A DNA stretch of 59,514 bases from Craspedostauros australis (lineage: Eukaryota). Positions 46,212 to 59,514 of the stretch are shown here, piece after piece. A model generated the notes under the pieces. It saw nothing but the letters and a program-made list of their open reading frames with translations. It was not told where the DNA came from and ran no database searches. A program made the translations under genes and the position numbers. The stretch spans positions 1 through 59,514 of the forward strand of contig JALAGF010006100.1 of NCBI GenBank assembly GCA_030167865.1. The letters run 5' to 3'. Within the stretch, counting starts at the first letter, position 1. The number at the start of each line of letters is the position of its first letter.

Positions 46212-49200
46212 CTATCCTTGACAGCTCAAGCAGACATCGTCTGGTTGTGTCGAAGGAATGTTGGAGAGGCCCATCCTGCCATTGCCACTGCCACCGTCAC
46301 CACCATCCGCATCGTCGTCACCGCCAACATTATCACTTCCTGGGGAATTCTCCACGGTGTACTGGATTGCGTTCACTGCCGGCTTCGTGCGGAGGTAGTA
46401 CATTCCTGTTTTCAACCCCCTCTTCCAGGCGTAGAAATGCATGGCCGTGAGTTTGTCGACGGTCGGATCGGCGATGAAGAGGTTCAGGCTCTGGCTTTGG
46501 TCAACGAACTTGCCGCGATCGGCAGCCATGTCGATGATCTGCTTCATCTTGATCTCCCAAACGGTCCTGTAGAGTTCCTTCAGGCGGTCTGGGATCTCCT
46601 TGATGTTCGCAATGGAACCACCGTCGCGCATCAGCTGGTTGCGGATCGCCGGCGTCCACAGTCCTCTGTCGGTGAGGTCCTGCAGCAGGTGAGGGTTGGC
46701 CATGATGAATTCTCCGGCCTTCACACGTCGAAGGTACAGATTGGAGCTGAACGGCTCGAAGCATTCGTTGACGCCCAGGATTTGGGAGGTCGAAGCTGTG
46801 GGCATTGGCGCGACCAGCAAGGAGTTGCGAAGTCCCGACTCCATCATTCGCTCTCGCAGCGCTTGCCAATCGTAGCCCCGGCCGTTGCATGCATCCGGAT
46901 AACGCTGAAAGCTGGCCTTATCCAGTGGCTGCGTGCAATGCCTGTGACTTGGGGTGTCATCGTCATCGCAACCCCACATGTTGTGCTGGAATTCTCCCCT
47001 GCTGGCTGGACTGCCGGCGAATGAATCATAGGCGCCTTCCTCTTCGGCCAGCTCCACGCTTGCTTCGAGCGCTGCGTGGTAGATCGTCTCAAAGATAGCC
47101 TCGTTCAATGCTTTCGCACCATCGGATGAGAATGGAAAGCCAAGCCGAATGAAAGCATCTGCCAACCCTGATACGCCCAACCCAATCGGACGGTGACTTC
47201 GGTTGGATTTGCGCGCCCCGTCAACGGGGTAGCTGTTGATGTCGATGACTTTGTTCAGATTCCGCGTGACGATCTTCACGACGCGATGCAGTTCTTCATG
47301 GTCGAAGTACGCCTTGCCAGAACCAGGTGTGACGGATCCGTATTGGCCATGCTCTGAGACAACGAAACGTGGCAAGCAACTATCATCGCAAGTCATAGAG
47401 ATGGTTGAACCGAGGAGGCAGCGGTATCGATAGAGAATGATATTGGCATTGGCATAGGTACGCCAGGCCAGGCCACGCCGAACCAGCATCGATATTGCGC
47501 AGAGTAATGGAGTGCCATAGAGTACACCAGGTGAGAGATCGATCAGGCACATTGCGTGGCATCGCACGAGTAGCATGCAAAGGATGTGCCGTTCGCACAA
47601 GCTGCGATACCATCCGAGTGTCTTGACCTGCCATGTTGCACCGATCAATGCTCGCCGCCCACATCACGACGACAACAACAAGGCCAGCAAGAGAAAGAGA
47701 ATGCAGCATGGAACTTCGCCCAAGTCACTTACATGCTCGCCAGGTTGCATACGGCAACTTCTTCCGAGTCGGTGTACTGGATGATCTCCGTGCACAGATT
47801 GCTGCATTGGATGGTACCGAGGTTCTGCTGGTTGCTCTTGCCGTTGGCTGCGTCCTTGTACAGCATGTACGGTGTGCCGGTTTCAATTTGCGATTCGAGG
47901 ATCGCTGACCAAAGCTCCCGCGCGCGGACTTGGCGGACGTACTGGCCTTTGCTCTCGTACTCCAGATAGAGCTTTTCGAATTTCTCGCCGTGCGTTTCGG
48001 ACAGACCTGGGCTGAGGTCAGGGCACATGAGGCTCCATACCTCATCCGCTTCGACGCGCTTCATGAAAAGATCCGGGATCCACAGACCGTAGAACAAATC
48101 ACGTGCTCGCTGCTCTTCCTTGCCATGATTCTTCTTCAAATTGAGCACATCGAAGACATCTGCATGCCATGGTTCCAGATACACCGCGAACGCTCCCGGT
48201 CGTTTGCCGCCACCTTGATCCACGTATCTTGATGTGACATCGTATACACGCAGCATCGGTACGAGTCCGTTGGAAGTTCCTCGCGTGCCGCGTATCGTCG
48301 TTCCGCGCGCGCGGATATTGTGGACGCTGAGGCCGATCCCGCCAGCCGCCTTGGAGATGACTGCGCAGCGCTTCAAGGTGTCGTATATCCCATGGATCGA
48401 ATCCTCGCTCATTTGGACCAGGAAGCAGCTGGAGAGCTGCGGGTGCGTTGTGCCGGCGTGGAACAATGTCGGCGAGGCATGCGTGAAATAACCCTGGCTC
48501 ATGTGATGGTAGGTCTCAAAGGCAGCCTGCAAACGAGCGTCCTCATTCTCTTGCGACACATCGGTCTGTCCCTCTTTCTTCGTGCAGTGGATGCCCAGCG
48601 CAACCCTCATGATCATGTACTGCGGTCGCTCGATCAATTCGCCCTCGTTGCCCTTGAGCAAGTACGCTCGTTCCAGCGTCTTCAAACCGAAGTAGGTGAG
48701 GTCGTTGTCCCGTTGCGGCACGATCTGGGCATCGATCTCCGCACCGCGGCGTTGCGCCAATTCCACAATGTCCTGATGGATAAAGTCGGTCCCATCCTTG
48801 GCCAGGATGCCAATCGCCTCTGAGAAGCTGGCTGGTGTTGACTCAGCCATCTGCGATGCCACGATCTGTGCAGCCAGCCGCGAGTAGAGAAGGTGCTGCG
48901 TGGCCATGCTTGCTGCCGTTTCCGCCGCCAACGTGTCGATCTCGTGCGATGTGACGTCCGGGTACGTGCCTCTGAGAACGGATTCCGTGAGCCCCTTCAA
49001 ATTCAACGATTTGACCTGTTCCTGTGGAAATGACGCCGACAGCGACTCCAATCTATTCAGGATCTGCATCCCGGCATGGAAAGCAAGAAAGGGTCAGTTT
49101 GGCTGCTCTGTTCTTGAAAGCGAAAGCAAGAGGGAATGGGCAATTGCAGCACGGAGTCTTTCGTGTGCAAAACATACTGTTATATGTTGAACGAAGATGT

Positions 49201-49548
49201 GAATGAACAGATGAATCCGTGAATGTGGGATGATCGTTCTCTACGTACCTTTGCACCATCAAGCTCCTCTCTCGTGCCATCAGACTTGGTGACGTAGATG
49301 ATGTTGCTCGCCTCCGACTTAACGCTGAGGAAGGTGGAGGCAATACCTGCGGTGCTGTTGCTGCCGTCAGCATCTGAACGCTGGGCTTCCGGTGCAGCGG
49401 TGGAGCCACCTCGTGGGATGTGCCATCCACGTGGCTGCGAGTGCGAGTGCGATTGCAAGCGATGGGCACCTGGAGCAGCAGAGCGCGAATCGTTGATCGC
49501 CAGCAACAGGGCCAGCAGGCCCAACGCCTTGGATCCACCGTGCCTCAT
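46212..49548 (-). CDS. RNR1: Class Ia ribonucleoside-diphosphate reductase large subunit with an N-terminal signal-peptide-like extension (3 exons, about 932 aa)
   Basis: Exons 49548-49249, 49063-47733 and 47379-46212 (GT-AG). ATP cone YVTKSDG...; ERPQY, HASPTLF, QLSSCFL, GGGKRPGA, SNLCTEI, VAVCNLASI, GLGVSGLAD, APMPTAST, DQSQSLN, GMYYLR, C-terminal CLSC. Confidence 0.95.
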
Positions 49549-50178
49549 CTTGCCGTTGCGCTTGCTTGCTGTACGAGTACTTCGATACGCCCAAGTACGC
49601 CTATGTACGCCCAAGTACGCCTTTGTGTGCCGACAATATAAGTCTCCGCTCTCTTCGCAACCGTGGCGTGGCGTTATGGATGTTCCGCGGCGATACTGAG
49701 TCTCTCCTTGTCCTTTCTCTGCCTCGGCGCTTGGTGGAGCCAACCGTGCAGCTCGTGCTCGTTTTGTTGATGTGGAGGGTTGGGAATCGTTGTGTCTCTG
49801 AACGACAGGGGAGGTCTTCGGCGTTCTCTGATGGTGTGGCCGGAGGATCGGTGGATTTTTCATTGGACATCAAACAGACCGTGACTCGATGACGCAGACG
49901 AGTCACGGACATGATCAATTGGTTTGTTTGTTGATGAAATCGTGCGAATGGCATCGCGATGTTCATCGATCTTGGTTGGAAACACACCACACCACACCAT
50001 GCCAAACCATACCACACCATACTGATACGAGCCACCGTACCCAAGAGCAAAGCAATCATACTATTATACACTCAAGAGTATACCAAAAACCAAGAATTGC
50101 ACTCCTATTGTTACTCCACTTGTAATTTTAGAGAGAGAGAGAGCGGATAATAGACCAATCTACTCAAGTGAATGAAGA

Positions 50179-50982
50179 ATGTCGTCACAGCACCAGAAGA
50201 ACGGCGACAATGATGGAGTGCCGACAAGAACAACGGCGGCCGACGTGGATCCGCAGACCAAGGCGCAGCAGCAGACGACATGCAACGCGTACATAGCATC
50301 GGCGCTTTCGGGCGATGCGACGGTGCATTTCCTGCTCAAGAACCTCATCGACATGGGCTGCGAACCGCCGGAGGGCTTCATCAAGTGCGTGGACTGCGAT
50401 GGCAAGCCCGTTTCGGGCGGGTTTGGAATGCTGCAGGAGACCAGCGTGCGCGATGGCAAGGGCACTGACAACGCAGCAGCAACTGCAGGAACAGAGTGGA
50501 ATGAGAATCGACAGAGCCAGTTGCAGAGACCGGATTGCACCAAGACGCGGACGCAGATCATGGAACAGTTCGACCGTGAGGCGTCGGGCGAATCGAAGCT
50601 GTCGCTGAAGCCCGAGATCTACCTCTGCCAGGAGCACGTCGCCGGTCCCAAGCACGTCAACACGATCCTCGCGCACGAGCTCATCCACGCCATTGACATG
50701 TGCCGCACCAAGATGGACCCGTTGCACAACTGCATGCAGCTGGCGTGCACGGAGATCCGCGCTGAGAACCTGAGCGGCGAGTGCAACTTCTGGTGGGAGG
50801 CGATGCGCGGCAAGCTGGACGGCTACTTCGGACATGGTCAGAAGTGTGTGCGGCGGCGCGCCGTCGATTCGGTTCGTGCCAATCCCAACTGCACGGGGAA
50901 GGCGGAGCTGTACGTCGATGCTGCCATGGAGCGGTGTTACAAGGACACGTTTCCCTTTGAACGGCACCCCAATCAGCGGTAA
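50179..50982 (+). CDS. ATP23: Mitochondrial inner-membrane metalloprotease ATP23 (peptidase M76)
   Basis: HELIHAID (HEXXH), ACTEIRAENLSGEC, CVRRRAVDSV, CYKDTFPF; 267-aa intronless ORF. Confidence 0.93.
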   Translation: MSSQHQKNGDNDGVPTRTTAADVDPQTKAQQQTTCNAYIASALSGDATVHFLLKNLIDMGCEPPEGFIKCVDCDGKPVSGGFGMLQETSVRDGKGTDNAAATAGTEWNENRQSQLQRPDCTKTRTQIMEQFDREASGESKLSLKPEIYLCQEHVAGPKHVNTILAHELIHAIDMCRTKMDPLHNCMQLACTEIRAENLSGECNFWWEAMRGKLDGYFGHGQKCVRRRAVDSVRANPNCTGKAELYVDAAMERCYKDTFPFERHPNQR

Positions 50983-56942: not shown

Positions 56943-58820
56943 TCACATGACATCGCCCAAGAAAACGATCTCGTGGTCGACGCCAAGTGGTTCCGGCTCG
57001 GGCGGCATAGTGCAGGCCTCCAAAATCTCCTCCGTCAGTTCGGGGAGCTCAGGAGCTTCGGGTGCGGGGTTACGACTGAGGAAATTCTGCACCTCATCGA
57101 CGGTATCTTCCGGGGTTTGCCCGTGAGCGGCATCCGAGATGATGCGCAGGCACCAGGCTTCCTCATCCTCGTTGTTGCCCTCGTATGTGGGGTTGTACAC
57201 CGACGCAACGATCAAAGCGGTGTGGTCGACGAGCTGGTTCAATTGGCAGATCTTGTACGTCGCGATTTCCTTGGCACCCTTGCCGGCTGAGAACACGCGA
57301 CAGGATGCGGCCTTGACAGAGTCGAGGGGTTGGCCGTTGGCGGAGTTGACCACGAACACCAGCTCCTTGATCTTTGGGTTCAGCTCGTAGAGGAAGATGC
57401 GGATACGCTCATCGTCGCCCTGCCTGGAGCCGTCGTCTTCGTCGCCACCGTGCCGGATGGCGTGGCATCCCGATTCGAGGTTCTCCTTGGAGATGATTTC
57501 GATGACTTCGCGCTTTTTGTCGAGGCAGATGACGGATGCATCCAGATCCATCGGCAAATCCTGCTCGCCGTCGCCATCACCGTCACCGGCGTCGTCACCA
57601 AGGGCACGCTCGCCATCGCCGTTGGGATCCTCAACTTCTTGGATGTCCTCGTCGTTGACGGCAACGGGCATTGGTTGAGGCGTGAAATCCCAGCTCACCG
57701 CGAAGCTGATGTTGGATGGAAAGCGCTCCACGTAGTCCTTGATGCGAATTGCTCCTTGCTTGCGCATGATGGCCTTGCGTCCGTGAGGGTCGAGCGGGAT
57801 ATCGGGCAGGACGTCGCGCGTGTAGGCCTTGATCTGCGGGATGACGGCCCCGAAATCATGCGCGATATCGTCGCCTTGGCCCATGGGGCGCAGGTACCAC
57901 CGCCCCTCCGATGGTTCCTTGTGGATGCGGACGAGGTAGGCGGTCGTCTGATCGCCGAAATCATTCTGGGCGTACCGACAAACGCCCATGCCGGTATTGG
58001 AATCGAGCATCCGGATCTCGGTGCCTGCGACGCCACCCAGCGTCAGATCTTGCTCCACGACCGAGAGGACGAGGTACAAAGCAGCGATGCCGCCGGGAAG
58101 GTCATGGAAGTTGACGGAAACTTGCTCGTCATCGCCGTACGTTCTGTGGGAAAGGCGGTCGCCGGAGTGCGAGATGGAGCGGTTGCGACTGAAGAGGTTG
58201 CCGGAGTACGCGCATTCTCTGAGATCGACGTTGCCGTTGCGGTCGACGGCGACGCAAGCCACGTCGACGTCCTTGTTGCCGCCCCAGCCCTTGCTGAGCG
58301 TATCCCAAGCGATGCCGAAGCGCACGCGCGGGTGCTCGATCTTGTGCGCCTGTCCTGGCTCGAGCTCCAGGTACTTGATCGCCTTGACTTCGGCAGCGAC
58401 GAGCAGCTTGCCCGTGGCATTGTCGCACTGCGTGCTGCCCTTGCCGCGGCCGACGTCGTACCAAGTGGCCTCGCTGTTGGAAATGTCGAGCGGGATCTCG
58501 ACCGTGCCCATGGGGTCGCTGAACGACACGACGTCCTTGTCGAAGATCCTGAGCTCGATGGGCTTGTTGTTGCGAACGATCTTCATGACCTGATCGGCGG
58601 AGAAGCTGAAGTCCAAGGTCTCATCCCAGACGGGGTCGCATGTCTTGTTGATCGTCTTCGTGTAGCCCACCTTGGTTCCGTCGATGTAGATGCGGATGAA
58701 GGGGTCAGAACCCGTCTTCTTGCCGCGCCAGTTCTTGTCCTTCGCCACCAAGTCCTCCGCTCTGTCGATGTGGAGCTTGACGGTGAGACCGGCCAACGAT
58801 GTGGAGGTGCTGATCGGCAT
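56943..58820 (-). CDS. C2 domain + tandem TerD-domain protein (about 625 aa)
   Basis: C2: LHIDRAEDLVAKD..GSDPFIRI..TKTINKTCDPVWDE..IFDKDVVSFSDPMG. TerD-1: FGIAWD..DVDVACV..SHSGDR..GDDEQVSV. TerD-2: VSWD..DLDASVICL..HGGDEDDG..GDDERIRI..VFVVNS. Likely ATG at 58820. Confidence 0.85.
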   Translation of the reverse strand: MPISTSTSLAGLTVKLHIDRAEDLVAKDKNWRGKKTGSDPFIRIYIDGTKVGYTKTINKTCDPVWDETLDFSFSADQVMKIVRNNKPIELRIFDKDVVSFSDPMGTVEIPLDISNSEATWYDVGRGKGSTQCDNATGKLLVAAEVKAIKYLELEPGQAHKIEHPRVRFGIAWDTLSKGWGGNKDVDVACVAVDRNGNVDLRECAYSGNLFSRNRSISHSGDRLSHRTYGDDEQVSVNFHDLPGGIAALYLVLSVVEQDLTLGGVAGTEIRMLDSNTGMGVCRYAQNDFGDQTTAYLVRIHKEPSEGRWYLRPMGQGDDIAHDFGAVIPQIKAYTRDVLPDIPLDPHGRKAIMRKQGAIRIKDYVERFPSNISFAVSWDFTPQPMPVAVNDEDIQEVEDPNGDGERALGDDAGDGDGDGEQDLPMDLDASVICLDKKREVIEIISKENLESGCHAIRHGGDEDDGSRQGDDERIRIFLYELNPKIKELVFVVNSANGQPLDSVKAASCRVFSAGKGAKEIATYKICQLNQLVDHTALIVASVYNPTYEGNNEDEEAWCLRIISDAAHGQTPEDTVDEVQNFLSRNPAPEAPELPELTEEILEACTMPPEPEPLGVDHEIVFLGDVM

Positions 58821-58853
58821 GTTCGTTGATTCTTTGTTCACGTGTGATGTATT

Positions 58854-58907
58854 ATAGAATAGAATAGAATAGAATACTATTCTACTATTAGAATAGAATA
58901 CAATAGA
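58854..58907. repeat. (ATAGA)n microsatellite with a short inverted internal segment, upstream of the C2-TerD gene
   Basis: ATAGAATAGAATAGAATAGAATAC-TATTCTACTATT-AGAATAGAATACAATAGA read directly from the sequence. Confidence 0.75.
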
Positions 58908-59514
58908 TGGAAGGGGAGATGCCAGCAACGAGGATGCGATTGCTGCTTCGACAGCTCTGGTTTACGATCTATTCTAATATTATGTGCAGTCTGAGGCTGC
59001 AGCAACCAGATGGTCATGCTGTGGCTCGGATCCTCCTTCCGTCGCCTCCTGCTCTGTTCACATCCGACTATTGGTGGGTCGTACCCAGGCTGTACGACTA
59101 TTCGTACGATCTATTCGTGTGATCTTTGGTGCCATGCAGGCATTGGGAATGACGATGCCGGAGGCAGTAACATCACGATTTGGCAGAACAACGCATGGCG
59201 TCCATGTTCGTAGTCGTGGCCGAAGAAGGGCGTGACTCCACACCAAGAGAAGGAGGGATACGATCTCTGGAGAAGAGAGGCTTTCGCCGACCTCGCAAGA
59301 ATGTGATGGCGAAGGCATTTTGGGTGATCACAGAGAAGATACGAACTGGGAGTTGTCGGAAAAGGAGAAAAGCTTACTTTTTATGTCGGAATTGGCAAGA
59401 CTAAGTACTTGATTAGACATAAATATGTGGTTTGCACCCATCATGGTACTTTGTTTGTTCCTACTACTATTGAGTACTTAGTTAGTTCTCTCCTTTGTGT
59501 TTCTGTTTCTGTTG

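Follow-up and report, generated by a model that had tools for sequence, protein, structure and literature searches.

Eukaryotic ribonucleotide reductase (RNR) is usually treated as a cytosolic enzyme, and to our knowledge the supply of deoxyribonucleoside triphosphates (dNTPs) to four-membrane plastids has so far been explained only by carriers. The diatom carrier NTT2 exchanges (d)NTPs against ATP, and NTT1 together with NTT2 accounts for net nucleotide import into the stroma, a model that assumes dNTP synthesis in the cytosol (PMC6995639; here and below, statements taken from published papers and their supplements hold for the sections of each source that our analysis covered). We analyzed a stretch of 59,514 nucleotides (nt) of nuclear DNA from the diatom Craspedostauros australis (contig JALAGF010006100.1; hereafter the window), whose minus strand encodes an RNR large subunit (RNR1; R1 when paired with the small subunit R2) with an N-terminal extension resembling a signal peptide followed by a transit peptide. 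The best explanation of our results is that this gene represents the diatom "second" class Ia R1, a paralogue separate from the ordinary cytosolic one. We give an even chance to the further proposal that it belongs to a dedicated R1/R2 pair whose destination is the periplastidial compartment (PPC), where the pair would plausibly supply the plastid with dNTPs.

The closest described enzymes are human RRM1 and yeast Rnr1, with which the window RNR1 shares its domains, catalytic motifs, Tyr-Tyr pair and C-terminal CxxC; it differs from both in an 80 amino acid (aa) leader ahead of the ATP cone and in having no Met at the start of the cone. The minus-strand gene model consists of three exons whose spliced product is a class Ia RNR large subunit of 932 aa. 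Exon 1 (49249..49548; 300 nt, 100 codons, phase 0) begins with an ATG at 49548 and is followed by a GTACGT donor after 49249. Beyond intron 1 (49064..49248; GT...AG, 185 nt), exon 2 (47733..49063) completes the cone and continues through the all-alpha domain into the first barrel half; SSCF, NLCTE and VCNLAS are encoded here. Intron 2 (47380..47732; GTAAGT...AG, 353 nt, phase 2) precedes exon 3 (46212..47379), which encodes the second barrel half, GMYYLR, a Gly/Asp-rich tail and a C-terminal CLSC and ends with a TAG stop codon. Unbroken blastp alignments with six full-length orthologues (68-73% identity) span aa 100/101 and aa 543/544 and thereby confirm the two splice junctions, which rules out an artefact of the gene model.

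Pfam searches of the single exons matched exon 2 to PF00317 (Ribonuc_red_lgN, all-alpha; 9.4e-24) and PF02867 (Ribonuc_red_lgC, barrel; 4.7e-99), and exon 3 to PF02867 (1.7e-102). Exon 1 alone matched no family and exon 2 alone gave no match to the ATP cone (PF03477), because intron 1 splits the cone; aa 76-132 of RNR1 align continuously to orthologues that carry PF03477 in their precomputed Pfam lists. The closest solved structures are human RRM1 3hnc (E-value 6.6e-154 for exon 2 and 2.6e-113 for exon 3) and yeast Rnr1 1zyz. SSCF, NLCTE, VCNLAS and GMYYLR are identical in the alignment with 3hnc, and CLSC lies four residues from the C-terminus, the protein ending in CLSCQG. We take these motifs to be the Cys/Asn/Cys/Glu residues of the active site, the second redox Cys, the Tyr-Tyr radical-transfer pair and the C-terminal CxxC. 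The initial annotation of the window had described all catalytic motifs as intact, and SSCF, NLCTE, VCNL, MYY and CLSC were indeed found in the translation and aligned to 3hnc and 1zyz. Since the domains, the aligned motifs and CLSC are all present, the enzyme portion is, as judged from its sequence, an intact class Ia large subunit. Two further features set it apart from 3hnc: an unaligned, Asp/His/Cys-rich insert of 29 residues in the barrel (exon 3 residues 140-168) and the Gly/Asp-rich tail of about 40 residues that precedes the C-terminal CLSC.

Signal peptides of the endoplasmic reticulum (ER) type begin with a positively charged n-region, continue with 7-15 hydrophobic residues as their core and place small residues at -3 and -1. 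The first 23 residues of RNR1 (49480..49548, minus strand) fit this description, according to a heuristic check of features rather than a trained predictor: the n-region MRHGGSK has a net charge of +2, the 11-residue core ALGLLALLLAI has a Kyte-Doolittle value of 2.9 over 11 aa, and the c-region NDSRS places small residues at -3 and -1 of the probable cleavage site (S-R-S or S-A-A). Next comes a transit-peptide-like stretch of 23 aa (aa 24-46, AAPGAHRLQSHSHSQPRGWHIPR; 49411..49479, minus strand), with a net charge of +3 and no Asp or Glu, ending in IPR directly before GGST. The resulting R-G-G-S-T motif (R46-T50; 49399..49413, minus strand; read from the codons) is a conserved element at the end of the presequence and a candidate processing site. 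A Ser/Thr/Ala-rich, net negative linker (aa 51-80; 49309..49398, minus strand) connects it to the cone, aa 47-80 together having a net charge of -2. The cone starts at aa 81 with IIYVTKSDG, and its first 20 codons (IIYVTKSDGTREELDGAK; 49249..49308, minus strand) carry Ile at the position where unextended RNR1s start with Met. Translation, hydropathy and charge thus bear out the exon 1 peptide that the initial annotation had described, with its basic n-region, hydrophobic core and small-residue cleavage region. The same holds for its statement that Ile replaces the usual initiator Met with no other in-frame Met before the cone: only M1, M153 and M172 occur among the first 200 aa, and since the next Met after M1 is M153, a downstream start would remove most of the cone.

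At either likely cut, the residue after the probable cleavage site is Ala, and the closest Leu lies 7-8 residues downstream. The +1 Phe that was said to be absent here and present in the plastid ribosomal protein L28 of the same window is distributed in just that way, L28 reading CSA-FTP; the ASAFAP-type +1 feature of stromal proteins is therefore found in L28 and not in RNR1. Both presequences combine a signal peptide, a hydroxylated basic stretch and a negative stretch after the cut, whereas RNR1 differs in its +1 Ala and in its conserved GG[SA]T element. The organization of the RNR1 leader, a signal peptide followed by a transit-like stretch with no aromatic residue or Leu at +1, is that given for PPC proteins (PMC12136025), and PPC proteins such as sCdc48, sDer1 and TrxH likewise have a signal peptide and a transit-like part without Phe, Trp, Tyr or Leu at +1 (PMC12136025; PMC6995639). 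We also considered, and rejected, a transmembrane anchor, the hydrophobic core being too short and too variable, and mitochondrial targeting, given the presence of that core and a negative MitoFates result for the Phaeodactylum orthologue.

To determine whether the leader is conserved, we searched for relatives with exon 2 among longer proteins; the best 120 were listed, nearly all of them from diatoms and mostly 880-990 aa long, with up to 74% identity to RNR1. In a first tally of these 120 and the window protein, 99 sequences combine an initial Met with 30 aa or more ahead of the cone; a signal-peptide-like hydrophobic peak lies within the first 45 residues of 78 of these 99, and GG[SA] follows the peak in 69. 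A second tally covered 126 sequences (the window protein, database relatives P0001-P0121 and four more), 104 of them full length with an extension, from which we derived a non-redundant set of 77 by dropping every extension more than 60% identical to one already kept. In this set, 66/77 extensions are signal-peptide-like and 50/77 carry GG[SA] downstream of the hydrophobic peak, against 7.8 expected from composition-preserving shuffles of the same regions. A motif logo built from the 47 orthologues with both features has Arg (22/47) or Ser (15/47) before GG, Ile, Val or Leu two residues before GG (24/47) and Thr after GG[SA] (27/47). Charge changes across the element: Asp and Glu make up 6.0% and Lys and Arg 10.4% of residues before the first GG motif, and 16.2% and 8.0%, respectively, after the last. 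Many orthologues have two motifs, the motif-to-cone distance has a median of 42 aa, the hydrophobic core ranges from about 11 to 28 residues, and the residue found at +1 in most pennate orthologues is Ala, Val, Lys, Glu or Ser. The hydrophobic extension is thus kept across diatom orthologues, and the IPRGG motif pointed out by the initial annotation is both real and recurrent, occurring also in proteins listed as periplastid components (see below).

Orthologue models of about 810 aa are, to judge by related sequences, truncated calls of open reading frames (ORFs): P0074 and P0102 fall into the same 90% clusters as the full-length P0285 and P0293, both of which continue upstream into a signal peptide and two RGG motifs, and the Fistulifera model P0053 begins inside the cone while P0054 and P0063 carry the same sequence on to a signal peptide. 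Orthologue ORFs, among them transcriptome-derived ones labelled complete, start with Met right before the hydrophobic segment. Met occurs at or next to the start position of unextended RNR1s in only 2 of 105 full-length orthologues, and 71 of the 105 have no Met between aa 26 and the cone; because Met is so scarce there, an internally initiated cytosolic form is not conserved. A search among representatives at 50% identity collapsed the diatom clade to P0121, which has a signal peptide and GLRGGST, and only P0122 and P0179 among the other 149 representatives have a clearly hydrophobic N-terminal extension. The nearest representative outside the diatom cluster with an ordinary unextended N-terminus is P0124 (about 56% identical).

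The metagenome proteins P0122, P0296, P0298 and P0300 make up a sister group of the signal-peptide-type R1s that lies outside the diatoms; they are 51-61% identical to the diatom proteins. A search with P0122 returned, after its three closest proteins, diatom signal-peptide-type R1s (51-61%) and three animal entries (46-59%). The ATP cone is absent from the precomputed Pfam list of this group. P0122 combines a hydrophobic N-terminus with a CRGGDDPP element, and P0300 has a signal-peptide-like start and no RGG.

The initial annotation had also drawn attention to an in-frame ATG at 49863, from which a form with no exposed signal could be made. This ATG is present, and the frame remains open, with no stop before 49548. 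The 312 nt immediately upstream of 49548 (49549..49860, minus strand), probably comprising the 5' untranslated region and core promoter, contain no ATG in any frame, as do 155 of 5,000 shuffles (3.1%), and all nine upstream ATGs sit at or beyond 49863. As indirect evidence, this ATG-free stretch fits a transcript leader that begins downstream of 49863. The start at 49548 lies in the context GCAAGATGAGG, with A at -3 and G at +4. Close upstream of it, TATATT occurs at about 49640-49635 (minus strand), and four GCGTA units with 10-nt spacing occupy 49620-49585 (minus strand), two of them inside 16-nt near-identical copies of GCGTACTTGGGCGTA; TATATT and the GCGTA units may be promoter or leader elements.

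We then compared the window gene with the RNR genes of model diatoms, four of which, two R1 and two R2, are listed for Phaeodactylum in PhaeoNet supplementary table 2 (PMC7596299). The R1 Phatr3_EG02045 has a signal peptide (ASAFind "Endomembrane", HECTAR "signal peptide") and is the orthologue of the window gene, because the N-terminus printed for it by PhaeoNet matches database hits P0020-P0029; one of these hits, P0026, shares 71.8% identity with the window protein along 850 aa. The two proteins have the same order of signal peptide, GG[SA]T motif, linker and cone, and differ in the motif itself, which reads IYGGAT in Phaeodactylum and IPRGGST in the window. For this orthologue, TargetP 2.0 predicts a signal peptide with cleavage at VSA-EVP, position 28 (PMC12136025 supplements), and published tables give a signal peptide by SignalP 3 and HECTAR. 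The Phaeodactylum R1 is annotated as two adjacent models, EG02045 of 781 aa and EG02046, a C-terminal fragment starting inside the barrel; hits P0020-P0029 give it as one protein of 911-912 aa.

The second Phaeodactylum R1, Phatr3_J42726, has no leader, its first residues already belonging to the cone; it is classed as "Other", with five consecutive top hits from oomycetes. The two R2 genes divide in the same way. Phatr3_EG02241 has no signal peptide ("Other"), and Phatr3_J17523 ("Chloroplast", HECTAR "signal peptide") starts with a hydrophobic segment, continues with an Arg-rich stretch and has two RGG motifs, of which the second is RGGST followed by a run of Glu; its leader is of the same type as that of EG02045. 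The top hits of Phatr3_J17523 are red algae (Cyanidiales), with one or two consecutive hits (PMC7596299). In the literature covered here, EG02045/EG02046 and J17523 are not discussed; they exist as database entries whose targeting annotation is purely automatic.

In the Phatr2a catalogue, the K10807 rows 45529 and 42726 are both called noTP, and of the K10808 rows 17523 is called SP and 22705 noTP (PMC12136025). In Thalassiosira pseudonana, the R2 Thaps3a_22267 (K10808) has a signal peptide ("asa-slp") and is predicted as "PPC" by ASAFind 2.0, and both K10807 rows, Thaps3a_268807 and Thaps3a_370, are noTP (PMC12136025); at least one of the latter two is probably a truncated model, like P0073. 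K10808 occurs eight times in the T. pseudonana file, and the account given here covers two of those rows. According to the published tables, a pair made up of an unextended R1 and a leader-bearing R2 is therefore present in Phaeodactylum and partly present in T. pseudonana: Phatr3_J42726 and the two K10807 rows stand for the second, unextended RNR1 whose existence the idea of a dedicated enzyme implies, and Phatr3_J17523 and Thaps3a_22267 for an R2 with a similar presequence. The 59,514-nt window itself contains no R2 gene.

We searched the supplements of PMC12136025 for RGGS, RGGA, SGGS, SGGA and RGGD. This led to file s004, which holds T. pseudonana and Guillardia sequences labelled with periplastid protein names; the counts that follow cover the first half of that table. 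The N-terminal extension closes with RGG, right ahead of a recognizable domain or an acidic run, in sCdc48, sCdc48-2, Der1-1, sSec14 and TrxH, which are five of the 21 T. pseudonana rows with an SP call; chance would give about 0.4 in 21 proteins, by a rough hand estimate from typical Arg and Gly frequencies. In addition, IPRGGS stands right before the catalytic Cys box of ptDUP, whose model has a noTP call, and sDTC carries LRLGGAAS as a variant. The cryptophyte table contains two Guillardia proteins with the motif after the signal peptide, and the polyubiquitin row has LRLRGG at the end of each repeat. No RNR was found in this first half of the PPC list. File s004 also lists, among the periplastid-named T. 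pseudonana proteins, the glutaredoxin GLRX2 (Thaps3a_265333), with Phe at +1 and the call "Plastid, low confidence"; since GLRX2 and TrxH are both listed, there are two possible reductants for an RNR behind the ER membrane.

The element also invites comparison with stromal processing sites. Huesgen et al. (2013; PMC3774753) describe a stromal cleavage consensus with a hydroxylated or small residue at -3, Leu at -2 and a charged or small residue at -1; the 63 mature stromal N-termini usually start with Ala, Ser or Met, and net-negative charge follows. The RNR1 element has the same flanks and a similar charge switch, but starts with GG[SA]T. Because of these stromal-like flanks and this different start, it looks like a processing site related to, but distinct from, the stromal one.

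Taking these observations together, we propose that translation from the ATG at 49548 would yield a bipartite presequence: an ER-type signal peptide that is cleaved off (aa 1 to about 23) and, behind it, a short, net-positive, transit-like stretch without an aromatic +1 residue, ending in [hydrophobic]-x-R/S-G-G-S/A-T. The protein would enter the lumen of the chloroplast ER (cER) co-translationally and cross the second membrane into the PPC, where the presequence would be cut off at or beside the R-G-G element and the enzyme would assemble with the R2 paralogue bearing the same kind of presequence. The thioredoxin or glutaredoxin listed among the PPC proteins would then reduce the enzyme, which would make deoxyribonucleotides near the plastid, which imports (d)NTPs through NTT carriers. 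Given the (d)NTP import attributed to NTT2, an RNR lying between the membranes could feed the plastid; such a PPC enzyme would serve the same physiological need as carrier-based supply and would insert a synthesis step between the membranes. The PPC appears the likeliest destination because most orthologues lack an aromatic +1 residue while the stromal L28 has CSA-FTP, because the end motif is common to import-machinery proteins and a thioredoxin listed for the PPC, and because one R2 is predicted as PPC and the top hits of Phatr3_J17523 are red-algal. The initial annotation had suggested a dedicated RNR on the ER/periplastid route; the conserved leader, the unextended R1 and the leader-bearing R2 of model diatoms are in line with a dedicated enzyme, for which the PPC is a candidate compartment.

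In its fullest form, which we advance tentatively, the proposal would be that the diatom PPC, a remnant of red-algal endosymbiont cytoplasm, houses a complete second RNR (R1 and R2), of which at least R2 is red-algal in ancestry, that uses a PPC thioredoxin and makes dNTPs for the plastid genome. Its leader would contain a new [hydrophobic]-x-R-G-G-[S/A] entry or maturation element, common to sCdc48 and Der1-1, that copies the end of ubiquitin and may be cut by a PPC ubiquitin-type protease.

Several observations weigh against import into the PPC. The Phaeodactylum R1 orthologue scores below the PPC threshold of ASAFind 2.0 (PMC12136025); as this predictor has a precision of 79% and a recall of 25% (PMC12136025), a negative call carries little weight. 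The call for Phatr3_J17523 is "Plastid, low confidence", its shifted cleavage site being followed by Leu, and Thaps3a_22267 is "not_identified" in the organelle proteome column (both PMC12136025). The signal-peptide-type R1 and R2 fall into separate PhaeoNet co-expression modules, steelblue and ivory (PMC7596299). PhaeoNet gives the R1 top-hit origin as "Prokaryotes/Chlorobi" (PMC7596299), and because this is a single hit of that kind, an endosymbiont origin is not supported for R1. Several Thalassiosirales orthologues have Phe or Leu one residue past the likely cut (S-F-L-P, S-L-L-P), which could mean stromal import in that group. RGG is missing from 16 of the 21 listed PPC rows and therefore marks a subset of these proteins rather than a general PPC rule. 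A transcript beginning upstream of 49863 would bury the hydrophobic segment. Finally, our literature search found no localisation experiment on a leader-bearing diatom RNR.

The signal peptide might act on its own, so that the R1/R2 pair would stay in the lumen of the ER, nuclear envelope or cER, or be secreted, with nucleotides exchanged through carriers of the ER such as PtNTT5; we consider this unlikely. Retention in the ER uses a KDEL/HDEL-type signal, whereas RNR1 ends in CLSCQG, and the ER lumen is oxidising, whereas RNR needs a thiol reductant. A plain secretory protein would moreover need neither a conserved second part nor an end motif common to sCdc48, Der1-1 and TrxH. The "Endomembrane" assignment of the Phaeodactylum R1 in PhaeoNet (PMC7596299) agrees with such a location, but NTT5 has no T. 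pseudonana orthologue (PMC6995639), while the leader is diatom-wide. An RNR pair with a full plastid-targeting presequence, making dNTPs inside the stroma, is in our view quite unlikely. It would account for the "Plastid, low confidence" and "Chloroplast" (PhaeoNet) calls of Phatr3_J17523 and for the Phe or Leu of the Thalassiosirales R1s, and the charge switch and the hydrophobic -2 residue do resemble the stromal cleavage consensus (PMC3774753). Against this, the +1 residue is Ala, Val, Lys, Glu or Ser in the window protein and in the majority of pennate orthologues and Phe in the stromal L28 of the window, Gly-Gly is no part of the stromal consensus or of the usual stromal N-termini (PMC3774753), and diatom plastids are described as importing (d)NTPs through NTT2 (PMC6995639).

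It is very improbable that the hydrophobic N-terminus goes unused because translation starts at 49863 or downstream of 49548, which would make the protein an ordinary cytosolic RNR1. The frame is open from 49863 to 49548, but ATG-free upstream stretches of 312 nt arise in few shuffles, orthologue ORFs, including those labelled complete, start just before the hydrophobic segment, and the next in-frame Met, M153, lies inside the enzyme. Furthermore, the leader and its motif are conserved and matched by an R2 leader, and model diatoms already have an unextended paralogue. Equally hard to credit is a membrane-tethered precursor, in which the hydrophobic segment would serve as an anchor and a ubiquitin-type protease would cut after an R-G-G that copies the LRLRGG of ubiquitin. 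Deubiquitinases normally need the ubiquitin fold, and by the positive-inside rule the positive n-region would place the bulk of the protein in the lumen. A core that has only 11 residues in the window protein and varies between about 11 and 28 among orthologues is also typical of cleaved signal peptides. What speaks for a tether is that the ubiquitin row of file s004 ends in LRLRGG, that several motif copies read L-R-G-G or I-x-G-G, and that the deubiquitinase ptDUP is among the listed PPC proteins.

We found no report of a signal-peptide-bearing or organellar RNR in diatoms, complex-plastid algae or nucleomorph-bearing algae, and no description of an RGG presequence motif, in a full-text search whose coverage included few subscription journals; the only match for RGG and periplastid concerned a ubiquitin-like apicoplast protein, as far as that source was covered. 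The NTT review (PMC6995639) contains none of the terms "ribonucleotide reductase", "RNR" and "reductase", and the main text of the ASAFind 2.0 paper (PMC12136025) contains neither "ribonucle" nor "reductase". It appears, then, that the sequences and automatic predictions are already public and that the interpretation is not in print.

The remainder of the window is ordinary diatom nuclear DNA, in which the genes neighbouring RNR1 include those for glutamine synthetase, MFS carriers, PRP38, WD40 proteins, ribosomal protein P0 and an ATP23-type peptidase. The ORF for plastid ribosomal protein L28 (45405-45833, plus strand) lies 400 nt downstream of RNR1. Its frame extends upstream of the Met into ...LLLGTCSA-FTPPPTSRS..., the end of an ASAFAP-type signal peptide with Phe at +1, and since this upstream open frame contains no Met, the L28 start must be in an upstream exon. 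The ATP23-type metallopeptidase (50179-50982, plus strand; Pfam Peptidase_M76, 7.9e-47) is divergently oriented to RNR1, and because their starts are 630 nt apart, the two genes probably share a bidirectional promoter region. In a long ORF at 56946-58961 (minus strand), a C2 domain occurs together with two TerD domains (Pfam 3.4e-17 and 4.3e-39), an unusual pairing in eukaryotes.

If a dedicated RNR does operate in the PPC, this compartment would gain a metabolic role in DNA-precursor synthesis, and there would be a reason why it has retained a thioredoxin. The enzyme would also provide a selectable, essential marker for studies of import across the second membrane. The R-G-G element is a concrete feature that can be mutated, and it could sharpen the prediction of periplastid proteins, of which current methods recall about a quarter.

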